Source of the DNA: a virus
Taxonomy: Duplodnaviria; Caudoviricetes
Virus record (IMG/VR): IMGVR_UViG_3300033121_001571
Length of the DNA stretch: 64,000 bases
Direction: 5' to 3' (one strand)
Numbering within the stretch: position 1 is the stretch's first letter; every line of letters begins with the position of its first letter. The position numbers were made by a program, and so were the translations under genes. Of this stretch, positions 2,510 to 41,497 are shown one piece after another. The notes under the pieces were generated by a model. The model worked only from the letters and a program-made list of their open reading frames with translations. It was not told the origin of the DNA and did no database searches.

Positions 2510-2725
2510 TTAACTCTCAGTTTTATCAAGGTATTTCATCAAGTTTGTCATATATGACAAACAAGACGTTGCTGTCACGTAAACTTTATCTGCAGTCGAA
2601 CCTGCAGTAGTACTAGTGATTTTTCTCAAACTCGTTAAAGCAGATATTGCTTTTTTTGCAAATTCAATTGCAAGCTTTCGTCTTTCAGCAAGTGGGATAT
2701 TGCTATAATCAGTATTATCTTCCAT
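2510..2725 (-). CDS. Hypothetical protein
   Basis: 71-aa ORF. The in-frame sequence upstream of the ATG reads EIKLILKEA, resembling a remnant of the shared leader. Confidence 0.5.
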   Translation of the reverse strand: MEDNTDYSNIPLAERRKLAIEFAKKAISALTSLRKITSTTAGSTADKVYVTATSCLSYMTNLMKYLDKTES

Positions 2726-2778
2726 CGCTTCTTTAAGTATCAGCTTGATTTCTTAGTATCAACTATTGAAAATCAATC

Positions 2779-3015
2779 TTATTCAACTTGTTGTAATGTA
2801 GACATGTGTACTGTAAACCTGTGATAGTTAACTTTATCGTCAGTGCGCTTGACTACAACAAGGCTAGGATAACGAAGTCCAAGCCATCGAACATAGGTTA
2901 CAGGAATTTTCCGACCAGTTGTTGGACTAGTGTAGATGAATTTGGTACCACGTTCAAATGGTTCCATTAAAGATTCTTTAATCAGATAGACTAGTTGTTT
3001 CTTGGTGATTTTCAT
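2779..3015 (-). CDS. Small protein with the shared N-terminal leader (putative internal head protein)
   Basis: Begins MKITKKQLVYLIKESL. Confidence 0.6.
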   Translation of the reverse strand: MKITKKQLVYLIKESLMEPFERGTKFIYTSPTTGRKIPVTYVRWLGLRYPSLVVVKRTDDKVNYHRFTVHMSTLQQVE

Positions 3016-3066
3016 TGAGAGCTGCCACTATAACTAGTTATGCGAAACAAGTCGCAATCAAAATGA

Positions 3067-3219
3067 TCAACGTAAATGTACTCTGTTTGCTGTTGTTCCT
3101 AAAACAGTTTCTACAGCAATCTCTATATCACTTAGTTTTTCTAATATCTCTTTGACTTACTGAGTGACCATATCACGTTTTTCTTCTTTGGTCTTGTTTC
3201 TAATGTCATCTTTGAGCAT
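3067..3219 (-). pseudogene. Small ORF interrupted by an in-frame TAA
   Basis: MLKDDIRNKTKEEKRDMVTQ*VKEILEKLSDIEIAVETVLGTTANRVHLR*, with the stop at 3157-3159. Confidence 0.3.
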
Positions 3220-3226
3220 GACTCTT

Positions 3227-3745
3227 TTAAGTATCCAAGTTATCTCTAAGTATTGATAGTAAGTGATCGTACTCAAGTGTCTCTGCGTAACCGTCACCGG
3301 TAAATGTACGTATGTCAACAACAACAACGCTTGCGTACCAAGATTTGATCAGTTTAAACATGACATCAGTTAACACTGTATACACCATATCATCAATCAC
3401 AAATTTTTTGTCTTTTTTAATTTGGGGTTTAACTTTGTCAGGATCAAAGTTTCCAATCACTACGATGTTTTCAGCATTATCAATGTACAGATTAGAAACA
3501 TCTTCTTCTGTAACATACCACTCTTCTTGATCAACATTTTCAATTTTTTCTGAACTAAAATCAGTCAATACAACATTAACATATATTTCAGTGTTTACGT
3601 CATCGTTGTCATATGGATGAACCGTGATACTGCTTCCGTCATGATCAACTCTAAAGACAACATACTTTCGATCAAACTTCTGTCGAGCATGATCAAAAAC
3701 AATGATTTTGTGTAATAAGTCTTTTGTCGCTTTGAGATGAGGCAT
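3227..3745 (-). CDS. Hypothetical acidic protein
   Basis: 172-aa ORF directly after the tail tube gene. Confidence 0.6.
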   Translation of the reverse strand: MPHLKATKDLLHKIIVFDHARQKFDRKYVVFRVDHDGSSITVHPYDNDDVNTEIYVNVVLTDFSSEKIENVDQEEWYVTEEDVSNLYIDNAENIVVIGNFDPDKVKPQIKKDKKFVIDDMVYTVLTDVMFKLIKSWYASVVVVDIRTFTGDGYAETLEYDHLLSILRDNLDT

Positions 3746-17048: not shown

Positions 17049-17064
17049 CTGTACATTCATCCTG

Positions 17065-17380
17065 TGGAGTACTGCGGAATTGAACCGCAGTCCAAGATCT
17101 AGAATCACTCAAGTCATTCACAGTCTTAGCTAGAGACTAGCGTTTTTTGCTCCAGTAAAGTCTTGAGCAGTGCACTTGATTTTAAAGAGAATCACTCTTT
17201 TTTTTGTGACATTCTGTTTCTAGGCTGTCACAACCCAAGACAAACTAAGCTGCTAGCTTAAGAGAGTCAATGCGGCCGTTATCGTTGGCAACTAACGTTC
17301 ACTTGGATTTTAATCTGGTTCCTAGTGTACCAGCGACTGCACTCAAGTAACTTTCAACCCTGTCGAAACCTTTGTACCCC
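17065..17380 (-). ncRNA. ssrA: One-piece tmRNA; tag reading frame 17289-17245 encodes (A)ANDNGRIDSLKLAA*
   Basis: 5' GGGGUAC pairs with 3' GUACUCC-A and contains the G3.U alanine identity pair. It has 5' GGUUUCGAC, T-arm CUGCG-GUUCAAUUC-CGCAG, UAGUU before the GCC resume codon and a tag ending LAA. CCA is not encoded. Confidence 0.95.
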
Positions 17381-34069: not shown

Positions 34070-35665
34070 TCACTTGAACAACCAACTCATATTAGAAAGT
34101 TCTTTTGGCAAAGAACTGTTTGCGATTTTAGGGTGTGCAATTGTTTTTGTTGTCATAATAGCGTTATTTGCAACTTGAACTTGATCCTTGTAAAGAGAAT
34201 TTTTTGTAACAGACATAGCTTTTAATATTGCTCTTTGCATATCATCATCATTTGTTGTCTGCACAGTCGATTCTCCTAACGTTAACCACACGCCTATTGC
34301 TAGCGACATGATCAAATCATCATACCCATCTTTTGTAGATTCAGGCCTGTTACCGTTCCAGATAAATGTCAATAACTGATCATATAACCTGCTAGAGTAA
34401 GTCTTGATCAAGCGATTTCTTAACGTTTCTTCTAACTTTGACAACATAGTCAAACGATTTTTTGAAGTAGTGATAAATCCTGGAATGTCTGTCTGTTTAG
34501 GTCCTGTTTCTTTACTAACTTTGTATTTCTTTTCATAGAACAAGTTCTTATATCCTAGATCTCTGATCTTGACATTTGTCAAGTACCCGAATGTGTTCTG
34601 TTCAACTACAACAAATGCTTCATTGTATTTTGAAGCCCAGAACATGATCAAGTCCGCTAATTTCTCAGGTGGTATCTTACCCATATACTCAGCAACTACA
34701 GAACAATCAATTTTGTCGATAATGTGAAATGCAGAATAGTCTTTAGCGTCTCCCCTTGAAACATCTGCTGACAACAAGTACTCACGGTCAGGTATTGGCT
34801 CTGACCAGATCCAAACATTTCTATCGTTACCTGCTTTCGCAATAGGAATGAGCGTGTGTTTTTTTATGTTTTCAAGATCATCAGCTTGTAAAAATGTGTC
34901 TCCAGATGCAATGAATGAACACTCATATTCTTGAGCAATCTTCTTCCTTGAAAGAGATTTTGTCTCTTGAACAAACCAAGCTCGATCACGTTCAGGATGA
35001 ACATCCCACATAAGTTTTATGGGATTAAATCCGTTTACTCCTGCTTCAGCTTCCACCCACAAATCGTGATAAATTCCACCAACACCATTTGGAGATGAAA
35101 TCAAGATCACATCACCACCAGTAGAAACTGTTGGTTGAAGACCAGTCCAAATATCATCAAAGTCATCAATGTGAGCACACTCATCAATGATTAGAAGCGA
35201 TAGTGCCTCTGATCTACCTGCGTCTGGAGACGTTGGGATTGCTTTGATTTTTGATCCGTTATTAAACGTAACTTGTTGTTTTGATGGTTCAAATTTTGGA
35301 AGAAGCAACCATTCAGGTAAGTTGTTAAGAACAACCTTGACCTTGTCAATCATGTTGATAGCTGTGGGCAATTTAGTTGCAATAACAAGTATATTTTTGT
35401 CTTTATGAAAAATGGCCATCCACACAGCATATGCTGCTGTCACAGTAGACAAACCTAATTGTCTTGACTTACAACATATGTTTAACCTGTTGTTCATAAA
35501 CATATTCAAACAATCATCTTGAAATGGATACGTCTTAAATGGCAACAGACCTTTTGTCGGGTGTTGGATTTTAACGTAGTTGTTCAAAAAATAGATAGGA
35601 TCTCTTCCACACTTTAATATCTCTTTAATCTGTTGTTTTTTTGCTAGCTCACTGTTGAGACTCAT
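34070..35665 (-). CDS. Terminase large subunit (T4 gp17-like)
   Basis: YPFQ, Walker A KSRQLGLS, Walker B LIIDE, coupling motif SSPNG, and nuclease motifs SADVSRG..DYS and DDLIMS. Confidence 0.95.
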   Translation of the reverse strand: MSLNSELAKKQQIKEILKCGRDPIYFLNNYVKIQHPTKGLLPFKTYPFQDDCLNMFMNNRLNICCKSRQLGLSTVTAAYAVWMAIFHKDKNILVIATKLPTAINMIDKVKVVLNNLPEWLLLPKFEPSKQQVTFNNGSKIKAIPTSPDAGRSEALSLLIIDECAHIDDFDDIWTGLQPTVSTGGDVILISSPNGVGGIYHDLWVEAEAGVNGFNPIKLMWDVHPERDRAWFVQETKSLSRKKIAQEYECSFIASGDTFLQADDLENIKKHTLIPIAKAGNDRNVWIWSEPIPDREYLLSADVSRGDAKDYSAFHIIDKIDCSVVAEYMGKIPPEKLADLIMFWASKYNEAFVVVEQNTFGYLTNVKIRDLGYKNLFYEKKYKVSKETGPKQTDIPGFITTSKNRLTMLSKLEETLRNRLIKTYSSRLYDQLLTFIWNGNRPESTKDGYDDLIMSLAIGVWLTLGESTVQTTNDDDMQRAILKAMSVTKNSLYKDQVQVANNAIMTTKTIAHPKIANSSLPKELSNMSWLFK

Positions 35666-36048: not shown

Positions 36049-36318
36049 CTAAATATCAATATTCACAGTCATCTTAGCTCTTTCTTGTATAACTTGTTTT
36101 ATAGCTTCATTGCTTGGCCTGTTACCACTTTCCCACTGTGCTTCTCTACCTTTCACAAACTTGTTAAAACAATACTCACAACAACCGTATTTTTCTGTAT
36201 ACATTTCATCAGTAGTAGTCGTCATAACATACTCACACTGACTACAAAATTGACTCATTTTTTTGATGTCACCAGAAATAACTACAACATAACCGTCTCT
36301 TTTCAGAACGTTATTCAT
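36049..36318 (-). CDS. Small Cys-rich (Zn-finger) protein
   Basis: CSQC...CCEYC; likely start MNNVLK overlapping the sbcC end. Confidence 0.55.
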   Translation of the reverse strand: MNNVLKRDGYVVVISGDIKKMSQFCSQCEYVMTTTTDEMYTEKYGCCEYCFNKFVKGREAQWESGNRPSNEAIKQVIQERAKMTVNIDI

Positions 36319-38881
36319 ATAACACCTTGGAGTCTTTTTCTGACTTAACGATCTCAATCATGCTGTCAACAATGTCTTTTACACCATCAACATGTGTGAT
36401 CAACAAAATGGTTTTGAAATATCTCTTTAGAGAAACCAAAAAACGATTACAAGCTTCTACGCTCATTTCATCTAAAGCACCAAATCCTTCGTCTATAACA
36501 AACATATCTGTTTTTGGTAACGTAGACACATTTGTCAATGCAACCCTAATAGCAACTGATGCAATCATCTTCTCCATTCCACTTCCAAGCTCTATGAGAC
36601 GCTTAGAATCAAAATAATCAATGTAAATTTCAAGTGAATCAGATTCTTTATCAAGCTCAAGACTGACAGTAAAATCAACTATTCCATGAAGTATCTTTGA
36701 GATCTCTTCATTGATAATTGGTAACTGTGATTCAACTATTAAACTTGGAATACCTTTTTTAGAAAAGGCAACCACTGCTAACTCGTAAATTTTTAGTTTG
36801 TTAACAAGCGATTCTTTTAGATTTTTTTCTTCAATCATAGAGCACAAAGTTGAATTCATTCTACCAATATCTTCTGCAAGCTTAATTCTAAGAGCATCTT
36901 TAGATTTGATGTCTTTTAAGATTCTATCTCTTTCATCTGTACACGCTTTTAACTTAGCATGAAATTCTGACTCATTGTGCGACTTGATCTTCTCATATTT
37001 TTCTTCACTTTGCTTTAAACGAAGTTGAAGATTTTGAATCTGAAGTTCAGTGTTTTCAACAAATTTTTCTGCTAATGTGATATTTGACTTTGTTTGATTG
37101 TGAACAGCAATCTTTTTAAGTCTATCACTCAATTTTAAATCATATTGAAATTCTGCCATCTTCAACATAAGATTGTGACTCTGTTCAAATAAAGCTTTAA
37201 CTTCTTCAAATTCATTTGTAGTTGTCACTATGTTATTTTTGTCTAAGTGCGCATTATGAATGAATTTACACTCAGGAAAAGAATCTCCACATGGTACAGA
37301 ATTTAACAACTGCAAAGAGTTTCTGTGTTGTTTTAAAGTGTTACTAAGTTGATCAAGTTTGTTCTTGTGCAAAGATGTCGTTGATTTTAGTGCTTCATAT
37401 TGTTCAACGCCCTGTTTTAACATTGTCAATTCATCATCACTAACAACTGTTTCAGATAAAGTTGAATTCAATTTTTGAAGTTCAAGTTGCTTTGATTTCA
37501 AAACAATGTTTTGACTGTTGATTGAATTACTGATGTCATTAATGACATTCTTTAGTGATATCACATCTACATCTTTAACGTCAGCTGATGAATTTAAGAC
37601 TTTAATTGTTGACTCTACGTCAAATAACTCAGATTGTAGTTTTTGCAACGAATCAGAAATAGAACTTACTTGTATAGACGCTTTTGACAAATTGTCTTTT
37701 AAGTCGTAAATCAATTTATCATAGTCAACAACCACGGAGAAGTTTTTAAGATTACTCTTCAAGATATTCATCTCAGATTTTGCAAAATCATGCATTGTGT
37801 CAAATATCTCTAGATCAAGAAATCTAAACAACGTTTGTTTTCTTTTTGCAGATCCATGACCCAAGAATTGGTTATTTTCGTTCTGGACTGACATAGTCGT
37901 CAACAAAAAATCTTCTGATGAACCAATTAATCCTCTTAGGACTTTTTCAGTGTCAGTTCTTCCTTCTCCAGCTAGATCGTCAAACCGCTTTGATTCATTA
38001 TTGTATCTAAATACGTTGAGATGCGTAGACGCATTGATCCCTTTTTTGTTTTCATTTTTAACCGTCTGTCTTTCTACAACATAAGACTCTGAGTTAATGT
38101 TCAAGATAGCTTTAGCATAACAGTGCTGCTTTCTTGCGTTGATAATGTGCAAATTCTTTATAGAACCTCTGTCAGAACCGTTAAATAAAGCATACATTAT
38201 TGTTCCAACTATAGATGATTTTCCGTGTCTATTCGGACCAAAAATTCCAACAATACCGTTAAGTGAATCAAAATTTATCTTGTTACCTTCTCCATAACCA
38301 TAAGTGTTATCAAATTGAAGCTCTCTTAGAGACCACTGTGTGTTTCTAACAACATCATTTGACGATAGTTGCGAAACACACTGCTTTATAAGATCATTCA
38401 TAGCTTCTTCCTCTGAAGAACTTAATGTTACGTCATTATGATATTGTTTCAACAATTTAAGCAATACGTCTACATTTCTAAGATCTTTTCTACCAACAAC
38501 TGTCTGTCCAGCAGATAAAACGCCAGCAACGTAATCTTTATTTGATTTGAATGTAACTTCAGCAGCACTGAATTTTTCTTTTAAGTGTTCAGTGATTTGT
38601 AAGACATCTTTGTGATGAAGAAATGAATCACTACACACTCTATATCTAGCGCCAATAGCATTTATAGTTTTAACATCTTCAATAGTAGCACTCACGCTCC
38701 CTTTCCAGGTGATATTGATAAATGGTTTTGTGTTTGGTAACGTATGAAATGATGCTTTTATGTCTTTGTTTGTTATATCCCACAACAGATATCCGTGCTT
38801 AATATCTTCTGCGTATGTCTGTTGTATAGTAGAGCCTGGATATGCAATCCTTGGTTGTTTAACTTTTACCCTTAGTTTCAT
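36311..38881 (-). CDS. SbcC/Rad50-like ATPase carrying the C-terminal part of an SbcD/Mre11 nuclease at its N-terminus
   Basis: Walker A GPNRHGKSS, Zn-hook-like CGDSFPEC, signature GSGME, Walker B IDEGFGALD and H-loop ITH. The N-terminal IAYPGSTIQQ..AE...GY is an SbcD motif. Confidence 0.88.
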   Translation of the reverse strand: MKLRVKVKQPRIAYPGSTIQQTYAEDIKHGYLLWDITNKDIKASFHTLPNTKPFINITWKGSVSATIEDVKTINAIGARYRVCSDSFLHHKDVLQITEHLKEKFSAAEVTFKSNKDYVAGVLSAGQTVVGRKDLRNVDVLLKLLKQYHNDVTLSSSEEEAMNDLIKQCVSQLSSNDVVRNTQWSLRELQFDNTYGYGEGNKINFDSLNGIVGIFGPNRHGKSSIVGTIMYALFNGSDRGSIKNLHIINARKQHCYAKAILNINSESYVVERQTVKNENKKGINASTHLNVFRYNNESKRFDDLAGEGRTDTEKVLRGLIGSSEDFLLTTMSVQNENNQFLGHGSAKRKQTLFRFLDLEIFDTMHDFAKSEMNILKSNLKNFSVVVDYDKLIYDLKDNLSKASIQVSSISDSLQKLQSELFDVESTIKVLNSSADVKDVDVISLKNVINDISNSINSQNIVLKSKQLELQKLNSTLSETVVSDDELTMLKQGVEQYEALKSTTSLHKNKLDQLSNTLKQHRNSLQLLNSVPCGDSFPECKFIHNAHLDKNNIVTTTNEFEEVKALFEQSHNLMLKMAEFQYDLKLSDRLKKIAVHNQTKSNITLAEKFVENTELQIQNLQLRLKQSEEKYEKIKSHNESEFHAKLKACTDERDRILKDIKSKDALRIKLAEDIGRMNSTLCSMIEEKNLKESLVNKLKIYELAVVAFSKKGIPSLIVESQLPIINEEISKILHGIVDFTVSLELDKESDSLEIYIDYFDSKRLIELGSGMEKMIASVAIRVALTNVSTLPKTDMFVIDEGFGALDEMSVEACNRFLVSLKRYFKTILLITHVDGVKDIVDSMIEIVKSEKDSKVLYE

Positions 38882-39538
38882 CTAAACAAGTCTTTCTATG
38901 ATCTCTGCGTTTGGATATGCAGATAGTTCACTTTCATCTATGATGAGTTCTTTTTCTGAAAAGTCTAAAAACTGTTGTCTGTGAATATCGCCAAGGAGTA
39001 CTAGATCATAACCATCAAAAAACTCAATTTTTAACCCATCTTCTAACATCCACGAAGACTCAGTCATTGATCCATAAACTGGTCCATGATAACAAGCTAT
39101 ATTGAACATTCCTTTTTTTGGAGAAACTGATTCCCAATTTTGTGGATCAAATAGACTAAACACGCACCAATTGAACCCGGGATGGAATTCATACACTCCC
39201 GAATTCTTATAAAGAAAGATGTTGGGTAACTTAAGAGCGTTAATGATTGGAGTAACTGCGTCTTGTCTGGACAGGTTTGACAAATTCATATCATGATTTC
39301 CCAATATCATGTGGGTACTTGTAACCCTAGATAAAGAAGTAAAAAACCATGTCATAAAATCTATGTACTCAGGAGAGATATTTTGAGTTTTTGTGTGGTA
39401 GATATCTCCCCCAATGAAAAGATAGTCTACTGACTTCTCCTGTAGATCAGAAATTAGTTTTTCAAAAACTACCTTATACTCATCGTGTCTAGACAAAGCA
39501 CGCACATGCAAATCAGCAATGTGACAAATCTTCACCAA
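38882..39538 (-). CDS. SbcD/Mre11-like metallophosphoesterase, N-terminal part
   Basis: HIADLH, GGDIYH, LGNHD, YHG and LGDIH motifs; the following YPGS motif lies in the next ORF. Confidence 0.88.
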   Translation of the reverse strand: MVKICHIADLHVRALSRHDEYKVVFEKLISDLQEKSVDYLFIGGDIYHTKTQNISPEYIDFMTWFFTSLSRVTSTHMILGNHDMNLSNLSRQDAVTPIINALKLPNIFLYKNSGVYEFHPGFNWCVFSLFDPQNWESVSPKKGMFNIACYHGPVYGSMTESSWMLEDGLKIEFFDGYDLVLLGDIHRQQFLDFSEKELIIDESELSAYPNAEIIERLV

Positions 39539-39569: not shown

Positions 39570-40559
39570 TCAAACAGCAGTTGCAGCTGATGACGAAGCT
39601 TTAACAAGTTGCGCAACTTCAGCTGCACCCTTAGCTAATTCTACGCCCTTCACTCCGGTCGCAGCACCTTCGACAAATGCTAAAAGTGACGTACCAGCTT
39701 TCAACACTCCGTGAATGCCTTGTACTGCAAAGTATATCAACAACGATTTGTAAATTAGACCCTGCGCTTTTTTCATAGCATTTGATTTATCTGAGTTAAC
39801 TTGAAACTCTTCAAATGATAACATTTCATTAGACATCTTTATGCCTTTGTTAAATAGAATTTTATACACTGCATAAGACAACTTATCAGGAACTATAAAA
39901 TCGATCGTCTTCTGTTCAAATGCATGAGTTACATGCTCTGCTTTTTCAAACATTGCAGCAGCATTTGGTGCGTTCAGAACATTAGCAAGCTTGTGTAATC
40001 CCTTAAATAACATTGGTAAACCACCCATAACAGCAAGACCAATACCAACAACTGCTGAAGCACCAAAGTCTTCATTAAGATTTGATTTTTGTGTTTCAGG
40101 TGTCTCTGATAAAACTTTGTAAATAGAACCAATGTATGATTCTGATTGTGTTTTTGCTTGTGCTTGCTTTGCTTTCTCTTTGACAGGACCTGCTAGATCT
40201 TGCTCAATAGCGTTCATAGCACCAGCTTCACCTAACTTTTGAAGTTCTTGTGCAGCCTTTAAGGAATCATTCAATTTAAATGACTCACCAGTCTCTTTCA
40301 TAGCTTGCTTGATAACTTGAAACATTTGTTTAGTTTCTTCAGGTATCTTCATAGAAGATAATTTCTCAGATATCACTTTTGCCCACGATGCTGCTGCTTT
40401 ACTAAATTGCTTCGAAACAAAAGCGCTTAGTTTTTTAAGACCATCTTTTACATCATCAAACACACCCTCTTGAATCTTTCTAGCAAGAGTTGCATGATAG
40501 TGTAATTCTAACTCTTCTTTGATGATCTTTCTTATTTTTCTTTGTGATAGAGTACTCAC
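39570..40559 (-). CDS. Protein with the shared leader and hydrophobic helices (putative ejected protein)
   Basis: MSTLSQRKIRKIIKEELE; hydrophobic stretches ASAVVGIGLAVMGGLPMLF and SLLIYFAVQGI. Confidence 0.6.
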   Translation of the reverse strand: MSTLSQRKIRKIIKEELELHYHATLARKIQEGVFDDVKDGLKKLSAFVSKQFSKAAASWAKVISEKLSSMKIPEETKQMFQVIKQAMKETGESFKLNDSLKAAQELQKLGEAGAMNAIEQDLAGPVKEKAKQAQAKTQSESYIGSIYKVLSETPETQKSNLNEDFGASAVVGIGLAVMGGLPMLFKGLHKLANVLNAPNAAAMFEKAEHVTHAFEQKTIDFIVPDKLSYAVYKILFNKGIKMSNEMLSFEEFQVNSDKSNAMKKAQGLIYKSLLIYFAVQGIHGVLKAGTSLLAFVEGAATGVKGVELAKGAAEVAQLVKASSSAATAV

Positions 40560-40567
40560 TGTGTTAA

Positions 40568-41497
40568 CTATATTCCAAGCTTAGCAAATGCAAAGTCTTT
40601 CCATGAGAAAAACTTTGCAGCAGACATACATTGAACAAAGTCTCCATGTGTCATAGATCCTGGATCAGAATTTTTTCCAATGTTAACTATCTTGACATCT
40701 AAGTCTAGAGAGTGAAGTTCTTTGCTTATTACTTGTGTCTTAGTATTCCACATATCTGAATCTAACGCCACAAACACAGCTGGACGGTGTTTCAAAATAG
40801 ACTCATATAGCAAAGATGATTTACTCAACGTAGATCCCATCAAGGGAATTGAATTTTCCCCGCACTTCATCATATCAAACACACCTTCGCATAATATGAT
40901 TGGTTGACTCCAATCAATGTCAATTTCATTGAAAATGATTGAACTTGATTTTATAGATGGATTCTGGTACTTGACACGTTTTTCATCAACTGTTCTAGCA
41001 ACATAATAATTCAAATTTCCATCCTTATCGAATGAAGGAACAATTGCCTGCCTTTTAAATTCCATAGAAAATCCAATCCTATATCTATCCATCATTTTAA
41101 GCGATATGCCACGTCGAAGTAAATAGTTCTTTATAACAAGAACATCGGGATTAACTCCAGAATAAGAAGATACTAGCGAAAAATCTGCAGGTAGACTGAC
41201 AACCTCCTCTTCTTCTTCCTGTAGATCAACGTTTATTTTTTGCTCATAAATTTCTGAAGCTAAAGTATAGAAATCTCTCTTTGCACGCATAGTCTTAAGC
41301 AAAAAAAATATGCTTCCAGATTTCAAATCACAACGCCAACAGTGAAATGCTCCATCAGCAACTCTTATTGCTAACTTCTTTTTTGAATAACCTGTTTTCT
41401 CACATACAGGACACAGAACATTTACATTCACTTGCCTTGCATCAAGAGTACATCCAGGAAAGAGTTTTTGAAGAAAATCAAGTTTTTTTGAAATCAC
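40568..41497 (-). CDS. DNA primase (Zn finger plus TOPRIM)
   Basis: CPVC...HCWRC, YLLRRGI, KYQNP, CEGVFD and ALDSD. Confidence 0.85.
   Translation of the reverse strand: MISKKLDFLQKLFPGCTLDARQVNVNVLCPVCEKTGYSKKKLAIRVADGAFHCWRCDLKSGSIFFLLKTMRAKRDFYTLASEIYEQKINVDLQEEEEEVVSLPADFSLVSSYSGVNPDVLVIKNYLLRRGISLKMMDRYRIGFSMEFKRQAIVPSFDKDGNLNYYVARTVDEKRVKYQNPSIKSSSIIFNEIDIDWSQPIILCEGVFDMMKCGENSIPLMGSTLSKSSLLYESILKHRPAVFVALDSDMWNTKTQVISKELHSLDLDVKIVNIGKNSDPGSMTHGDFVQCMSAAKFFSWKDFAFAKLGI

Follow-up and report, generated by a model that had tools for sequence, protein, structure and literature searches.

The 64,000-nucleotide (nt) stretch of IMG/VR virus record IMGVR_UViG_3300033121_001571 (Duplodnaviria; Caudoviricetes) that we analysed, called the window below, is DNA of a giant uncultured phage, with 37% G+C and genes nearly all on the minus strand. 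It encodes an Mre11/SbcD-type nuclease that is split in the middle of its fold by a TAG stop codon directly followed by an ATG, and the remaining part of the nuclease is fused to a Rad50/SbcC ATPase. Our analysis indicates that these two open reading frames (ORFs) are probably a two-chain form of a phage Mre11-Rad50 enzyme that was ancestrally a single polypeptide. The gene would have been broken by a free-standing homing-endonuclease cassette that brought conserved tails to both broken ends, and the window would represent an endonuclease-free descendant of that event. The locus consists of the following parts.

39538..38882, minus strand: ORF A, 218 amino acids (aa), TTG start; N-terminal part of an Mre11/SbcD-type nuclease with all five phosphoesterase motifs
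39506-39517, minus strand: phosphoesterase motif I, DLH, in ORF A
39395-39412, minus strand: phosphoesterase motif II, GGDIYH, in ORF A
39290-39301, minus strand: phosphoesterase motif III, GNHD, in ORF A
39083-39094, minus strand: phosphoesterase motif IV, CYHG, in ORF A
38981-38992, minus strand: phosphoesterase motif V, GDIH, in ORF A
38885..38956, minus strand: A-tail, a 24-aa acidic C-terminal extension EKELIIDESELSAYPNAEIIERLV that is missing from contiguous short-linker homologs
38879..38884, minus strand: TAG/ATG junction, where the stop of A abuts the start of B (gap 0)
38881..36311, minus strand: ORF B, 856 aa; last strands of the nuclease core, capping domain and linker (about aa 1-190), then the Rad50/SbcC ATPase with a coiled coil
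38855..38881, minus strand: B-head, a 9-aa basic N-terminal extension MKLRVKVKQ, followed by the conserved strand RIAYPGS (38831-38848)
38213-38239, minus strand: Walker A, GPNRHGKSS, in ORF B
37877-37891, minus strand: Q-loop, SVQNE, in ORF B
37262-37294, minus strand: hook-like apex PCGDSFPECKF, in ORF B
36569-36586, minus strand: signature GSGMEK (a variant), in ORF B
36479-36505, minus strand: Walker B, MFVIDEGFG, in ORF B
36389-36400, minus strand: H-loop, ITHV, in ORF B

In Pfam, ORF A is hit by Metallophos (PF00149) with E 5.7e-14 and 53.4 bits (cut-off 21.5), and its PHROG match is family 100 'SbcD-like subunit' (6e-18). Phosphoesterase motifs I-V with their metal ligands are all intact and all of them lie within ORF A. 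The Pfam matches of ORF B are AAA_23 (38.3 bits, cut-off 27), SMC_N and SbcC_Walker_B, its match to PHROG 77 'SbcC-like subunit' has an E-value of 3.9e-41, and a family profile that includes full-length relatives matches Rad50 chains of the PDB. The motif set of a Rad50/SbcC ABC ATPase is complete in ORF B and is interrupted by a long coiled coil. There is no canonical CxxC zinc hook at the coiled-coil apex, which is C-x6-C. Both apex cysteines (C531 and C538) are invariant across 31 relatives (alignment A1) and the C-x6-C apex may be a variant hook.

The 3' end of ORF A reads ATA GAA AGA CTT GTT TAG (protein ...ERLV, then the TAG at 38882-38884), and the protein encoded by ORF B begins with MKLRVKVKQPRIAYPGS from the ATG at 38881-38879. 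The break falls in the hairpin loop between the strand of motif V (GDIH) and the next core strand (IAYPGS). AlphaFold was used to model ORF A together with residues 1-186 of ORF B, the TAG being translated as Q; the rows of split relatives could not be paired across the junction in the model alignment and the co-variation signal there is limited. The mean predicted local distance difference test (pLDDT) score of the model is 82.6, and the nuclease and capping domains are confident. According to Foldseek the best matches of the model are full nuclease-plus-capping structures of SbcD/Mre11 (7yzo/6s6v of E. coli and 7dog of S. aureus), with E about 1e-13 (7e-14 reported) over 370-440 aligned columns. 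The complete nuclease core and capping fold is reached only by A and the first ~186 aa of B together. The gene boundary therefore lies inside the Mre11/SbcD fold, after the last catalytic motif. The capping domain runs covalently into Rad50, and helices at residues 350-389 of the model may match the Rad50-binding helix-loop-helix, confidence falling at the end of the model. A sequence-only reading of this DNA had proposed an Mre11/SbcD nuclease split mid-fold by TAG/ATG with its rest fused to Rad50/SbcC, and the ORF coordinates, motifs, Pfam and PHROG matches and structure model all bear this out. Its background assumption that the ATPase is a separate gene turned out not to hold in this family, whose nuclease and ATPase usually form a single chain; here the fusion came first and the split arose from it.

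A contiguous Mre11-Rad50 fusion of ~1045-1066 aa is the common form in related phages. When the read-through protein was compared with GenBank phages by tblastn, a one-piece alignment was obtained to a single 1066-aa coding sequence of Microcystis phage Mel-JY01. There, a primase-like gene comes first, then a small ORF and then the contiguous Mre11-Rad50 gene, which matches the synteny of the window. Huge uncultured phages also carry uninterrupted Mre11-Rad50 frames. ORF B has 1291 relatives in a collection of 5.8 billion proteins; about 30 of the 120 relatives listed are 1011-1077 aa long with a phosphoesterase domain in front. At the DNA level the single-chain form is present in about 50 of 80 IMG/VR loci, with GDIH followed 12-20 residues later by (K)PWI-x-YPG[ST]. 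Short-linker fused relatives (~50) have just ~5 aa at the place where the split forms have the A-tail and the B-head.

The split form is conserved as well. More than 80 of the 120 listed relatives of ORF B are 854-878 aa long and align over 100% of ORF B with their first Met at the homologous position; the start consensus is M-x-K-[IL]-[RK]-I-[KR]-x-K-x-P-W-I-[AG]-Y-P-G-S. For the junctions themselves we surveyed the 26 split relatives with DNA, and the same loop is broken in all of them. Fifteen junctions have a 4-nt overlap (ATGA, GTGA or TTGA) with B in another frame and one has an 8-nt overlap; the remaining gaps are +12, +24, +42 (three loci), +76, +137, +307, +914 and +924 nt. Altogether B is out of frame with A in 20 of the 26 loci; of the six in-frame gaps, one contains an endonuclease gene. 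Gene A stops with TGA in 19 relatives, with TAA in seven and with TAG in none, so the window alone has TAG. It is important to note that a zero-length gap automatically places B in frame with A. The comparison of the junction frame across homologs had been proposed in the sequence-only reading as the way to tell a split enzyme from readthrough: the frame varies among the 26 loci, and therefore readthrough is not a feature of the family. The natively split enzyme suggested there is supported by both the same-loop split in the 26 loci and the >80 proteins that start at the homologous Met.

At L021:2685-2991 the halves are separated by a 307-nt G+C-rich spacer that contains no recognisable endonuclease ORF and has no Rfam match.

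Two of the gaps contain nuclease genes. The 924-nt gap of locus L079 holds a 300-aa ORF that matches PHROG 3339 'homing endonuclease' (4e-17). This ORF has Cys-rich and NUMOD-like N-terminal parts and a Vsr/DUF559-type PD-(D/E)xK domain, for which the Pfam matches to Vsr and DUF559 are below their cut-offs. In L002 (LR756508, a 484-kb uncultured huge phage) the gap encodes, at 2665-3582, a TnsA-N-like nuclease (Pfam 5.8e-6, above the cut-off) with Cys-rich N-terminal repeats. One split site has thus been used by two unrelated nuclease genes in distant lineages. Three further loci, L025 (137 nt), L047 (76 nt) and L070 (42 nt), have ever shorter remnants of the 3' end of the L079 endonuclease just before the ATG of B, and these remnants represent a decay series. 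No group I intron was matched by Rfam in the gaps of L079, L002, L021 and L025.

How the split state is distributed was followed on a FastTree tree of the Rad50 part only (74 rows; the junction and capping regions were left out, and the window, L052 and the outgroups form long branches). The split state needs at least 11-12 changes on this tree. L079, which is split, falls inside a fused clade, the short-linker fused gene L036 falls inside a split clade, and near-identical genes differ in state: L047 is split and L039 is fused, L025 is split and L014, L016 and L017 are fused. Nucleotide identity in sliding windows reveals where such pairs differ. L047 and L039 are 85-95% identical along the gene and 69-77% identical within ~200 nt of the junction. 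For L047 and L079 it is the other way round, 45-70% elsewhere and 82-96% within ~200 nt of the junction. The same mosaic pattern is found when L025 is compared with L016 and L079. A patchy split state together with a mosaic junction tract is the signature of homing with co-conversion of the flanks. These comparisons indicate that genes which used to be contiguous receive the endonuclease, the break and the two tails as one unit.

Regarding the tails, all 26 split relatives have extra sequence on both broken ends, and the pattern is the same in 25 of them. The end of A follows E-x-E-I-D-E-x-D-L-x-K-Y-P-G-A-E-V-I-E (ELIIDESELSAYPNAEIIERLV in the window) and the start of B follows K-K-I-K-I-K-x-K (KLRVKVK in the window); the distant L002 has only a weak resemblance to this pattern. 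The contrast between acidic sequence at the end of A and basic sequence at the start of B, pointed out in the sequence-only reading, is therefore real and conserved in split relatives. Pairing of the A-tail with the B-head as complementary strands would be plausible, and the model, of low confidence in this region, speaks neither for nor against it. It is conceivable, with a chance that we place slightly below even, that the acidic tail and the basic head are a portable 'break-and-clasp' module that travels with the homing-endonuclease cassette, is widespread in hundreds of giant-phage genomes and persists after the endonuclease has been lost. If portable tails hold the two chains together, a selfish gene could invade a domain of an essential enzyme without an intron or intein. 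If this is true, a mechanism proposed from the single case of Aeromonas phage Aeh1 would be widespread among giant phages.

A separate observation concerns the RNA in the tail region. In many junctions with a 4-nt overlap (L004, L010, L020, L038, L060 and others) the last codons of A (AEVI-E/G) spell GAGGTGAT, which is a Shine-Dalgarno-like site ~10 nt upstream of B's start codon; the motif is missing from the window. Because GAGGTGAT lies within the codons of the A-tail, part of the tail conservation may act at the RNA level. Shine-Dalgarno motifs are scarce in the window in general (8 of 51 genes).

Taken together, the following course of events would explain the locus. A cassette with a free-standing homing-endonuclease gene spreads between related phages via gene conversion, carrying ~20 acidic residues for the end of A and ~8 basic residues for the start of B, and the break in the nuclease gene would be the scar of such a cassette. 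In the lineage of the window the endonuclease gene would have gone and the two ORFs now abut as TAG/ATG. Chain A (218 aa) would contribute all the metal-binding motifs, and chain B (856 aa) the rest of the core together with the capping domain and the Rad50 ATPase. B is probably translated on its own from its ATG by coupling of termination and reinitiation; the other gene junctions of the window are equally tight, with -4, -1 and 0 to +11 nt being the rule. The chains would then re-associate non-covalently via the native intra-domain interface, with the tails probably helping, as in the split NrdA of phage Aeh1. Both halves are intact and conserved across a wide clade, and we infer that the two chains assemble and are active. 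Since the tails of the window are homologous to those of cassette-bearing relatives, the same cassette is the likely origin of the split in the window's own lineage.

Several points weigh against this explanation. Neither an endonuclease gene nor a remnant of one is present in the window (gap 0 nt), and the origin of its split rests on tail homology. Its gene forms a long branch; no relative exceeds 47% identity, and the matches that rank highest by E-value are split forms. No close relatives that would date the junction of the window were found in JGI metagenome contigs or IMG/VR in a search with a single protein, and megablast of the window against GenBank phages gave no match. As to the clasp role of the tails, model residues 190-240, which contain them, have a pLDDT of only ~52. 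The split could also predate the endonucleases, which might have settled in an existing gap.

Other explanations of the junction have to be compared with the cassette origin. The sequence-only reading had considered amber readthrough as a regulatory switch, in which programmed suppression of the TAG would produce a 1075-aa single chain beside or instead of the two chains. The window junction is indeed in frame with zero gap, and the same long-linker insert is found uninterrupted in two database proteins, P0075 (1077 aa) and P0094 (1076 aa), which are contiguous according to the database gene calls, so a read-through product of the window gene would probably be tolerated, fold and work. We nevertheless find regulated readthrough highly improbable: none of the split relatives has a TAG at the junction and most of them are out of frame, the ATG of the window aligns with the start Met of >80 homologs, and TAG ends 7 of the 51 minus-strand genes in the window. 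With the standard code, coding sequence makes up 88% of the window and genes of 1000-1240 aa stay open throughout, and no tRNA genes were found within it. On stop usage, coding density and the lack of a tRNA in the window, a global recoding of TAG was also rejected. The same long-linker proteins bring up the possibility that a contiguous long-linker gene is interrupted in the window by a private nonsense mutation, which would make it a pseudogene, or by an assembly error, which would make the stop an artefact. A single base change would make the TAG a sense codon and yield a form like P0075 or P0094, and the sole database protein with 100% identity (P0002) is a fragment that ends short of the junction. 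However, the position of the stop coincides with the end of gene A in hundreds of relatives, the ATG right behind it corresponds to their start of B, both halves are intact with all motifs, and a chance stop would rarely land one codon before a conserved start Met. With the split found at the same site in 26 relatives with DNA and in >80 database proteins, there is next to no room left for the private mutation that had been named earlier. The annotation is settled: the two ORFs are two genes of one enzyme, neither a pseudogene nor a recoding site.

Somewhat less improbable, though still unlikely in our view, is an ancient split that did not come from an endonuclease, the loop having been elaborated first, the gene broken within it and the gap colonised later by homing endonucleases. 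Consistent with this order of events, the older split clade, to which the window belongs, has clean 4-nt overlaps without endonuclease remnants, long-linker fused forms exist, and free-standing endonuclease genes usually insert between genes (PMC2988022). However, P0075 and P0094 are nested separately among the split forms. Being inside split clades, these long-linker fused forms look like re-fusions and not like ancestors, and the split state is therefore reversible. In addition, the split enters fused short-linker genes as a module, tails and endonuclease DNA together, and nuclease genes of two unrelated kinds sit at this site in distant lineages. These observations favour breakage by the cassette. 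We also considered a split-intein remnant and rejected it: Pfam found no intein or Hint domain in ORF A or ORF B, and tails of 24 and 9 aa are too short. The spacing in the A-tail loosely resembles intein block A, and this likeness was dropped after consideration.

The closest precedent for the cassette origin is the 'genes-in-pieces' ribonucleotide reductase nrdA-a/mobE/nrdA-b of Aeromonas phage Aeh1 (Friedrich et al. 2007, cited in PMC2988022), in which the insertion gave rise to the tails, and the halves need them to assemble (Crona et al. 2011, PMC3045599; PMC2988022). In both cases an essential enzyme of DNA metabolism that is contiguous in related phages has its break within a functional domain; a free-standing homing endonuclease gene is the cause in Aeh1 and the probable cause here. 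Neither system uses an intron or intein, and both halves have C- or N-terminal tails not present in contiguous homologs. The differences are also clear. The endonuclease of Aeh1 is the HNH enzyme MobE, whereas here PD-(D/E)xK types (Vsr-like and TnsA-like) occur and the host gene is Mre11-Rad50. Aeh1 is one phage, while the present system is found in hundreds of metagenomic phages, most copies of which, including the window, are without the endonuclease. Function of the tails has been demonstrated biochemically in Aeh1; here the tails are known from sequence and are seen moving with the cassette by gene conversion. T4 genes 39/60 with mobA and the split gene 43 of Aeromonas phages 25 and 44RR (PMC2988022) are similar in that replication or recombination genes are split with an endonuclease gene or spacer between the parts, and the products must re-assemble; the enzymes and the endonuclease families are different. 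For gene 43 of phages 25 and 44RR the settling of the endonuclease in an existing gap has been discussed and the order of events is undecided (PMC2988022), a caveat that applies also to the older clade of the window.

The break differs from two other known arrangements. The boundary in canonical SbcD/SbcC, Mre11/Rad50 and T4 gp47/gp46 comes after the whole of Mre11 (nuclease, capping domain and Rad50-binding helices), whereas here it is inside the nuclease core and the capping domain is joined to Rad50. Catalytic motifs, the nuclease-plus-capping fold, the coiled-coil ABC ATPase and the number of two genes are shared with these systems; the hook of canonical Rad50 is CxxC and not C-x6-C. Dassa and colleagues reportedly described, in 2009, fractured genes with split inteins and a free-standing endonuclease. 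The Mre11-Rad50 break is different from those because it has no intein halves and no conserved Cys/Ser/Thr nucleophile layout. Without intein halves the chains cannot be spliced and must stay non-covalent.

With the cassette origin, this locus would be a second case in which a free-standing homing endonuclease has broken an enzyme that goes on working with neither RNA nor protein splicing, and it is represented by far more phages than the first. What appears to be new is Mre11-Rad50 as the host gene, the large natural population and the comparative evidence that the tails travel with the cassette; we found no paper on a split or endonuclease-invaded phage Mre11-Rad50 gene. The relatives show all stages, i.e. 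an intact endonuclease, a decay series, clean two-gene overlaps, re-fused genes and uninvaded fused genes, and this makes the life cycle of the cassette and the role of the tails directly testable. The target itself is worth noting. Homing depends on double-strand breaks, and enzymes of the Mre11-Rad50 kind (gp46/47 in T4) resect such breaks. Both gp46 and gp47 have been listed among possible homing functions (PMC2988022).

The genes around the locus and other features of the window are given below.

36049..36357, minus strand: Cys-rich ORF of ~100 aa (CxxC...CCxxC), directly downstream of B, with a 47-nt overlap with the 3' end of B
39570-40559, minus strand: 329-aa ORF between the primase gene and ORF A, with an Ala/Gly-rich, possibly membrane-associated C-terminal half
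40568..41497, minus strand: DNA primase gene, two genes upstream (PHROG 47 'DNA primase', 1.2e-37)
34070-35665: 531-aa ORF, probable large terminase judged by sequence alone
17062-17380, minus strand: tmRNA

Neither the Cys-rich ORF nor the 329-aa ORF matches a Pfam or PHROG family. In 77 of 84 loci tblastn places the Cys-rich ORF immediately after the Mre11-Rad50 gene, and it may be a constant partner of the enzyme. The tmRNA was identified with Rfam RF00023 (79.8 bits), and ARAGORN gives its tag as ANDNGRIDSLKLAA.

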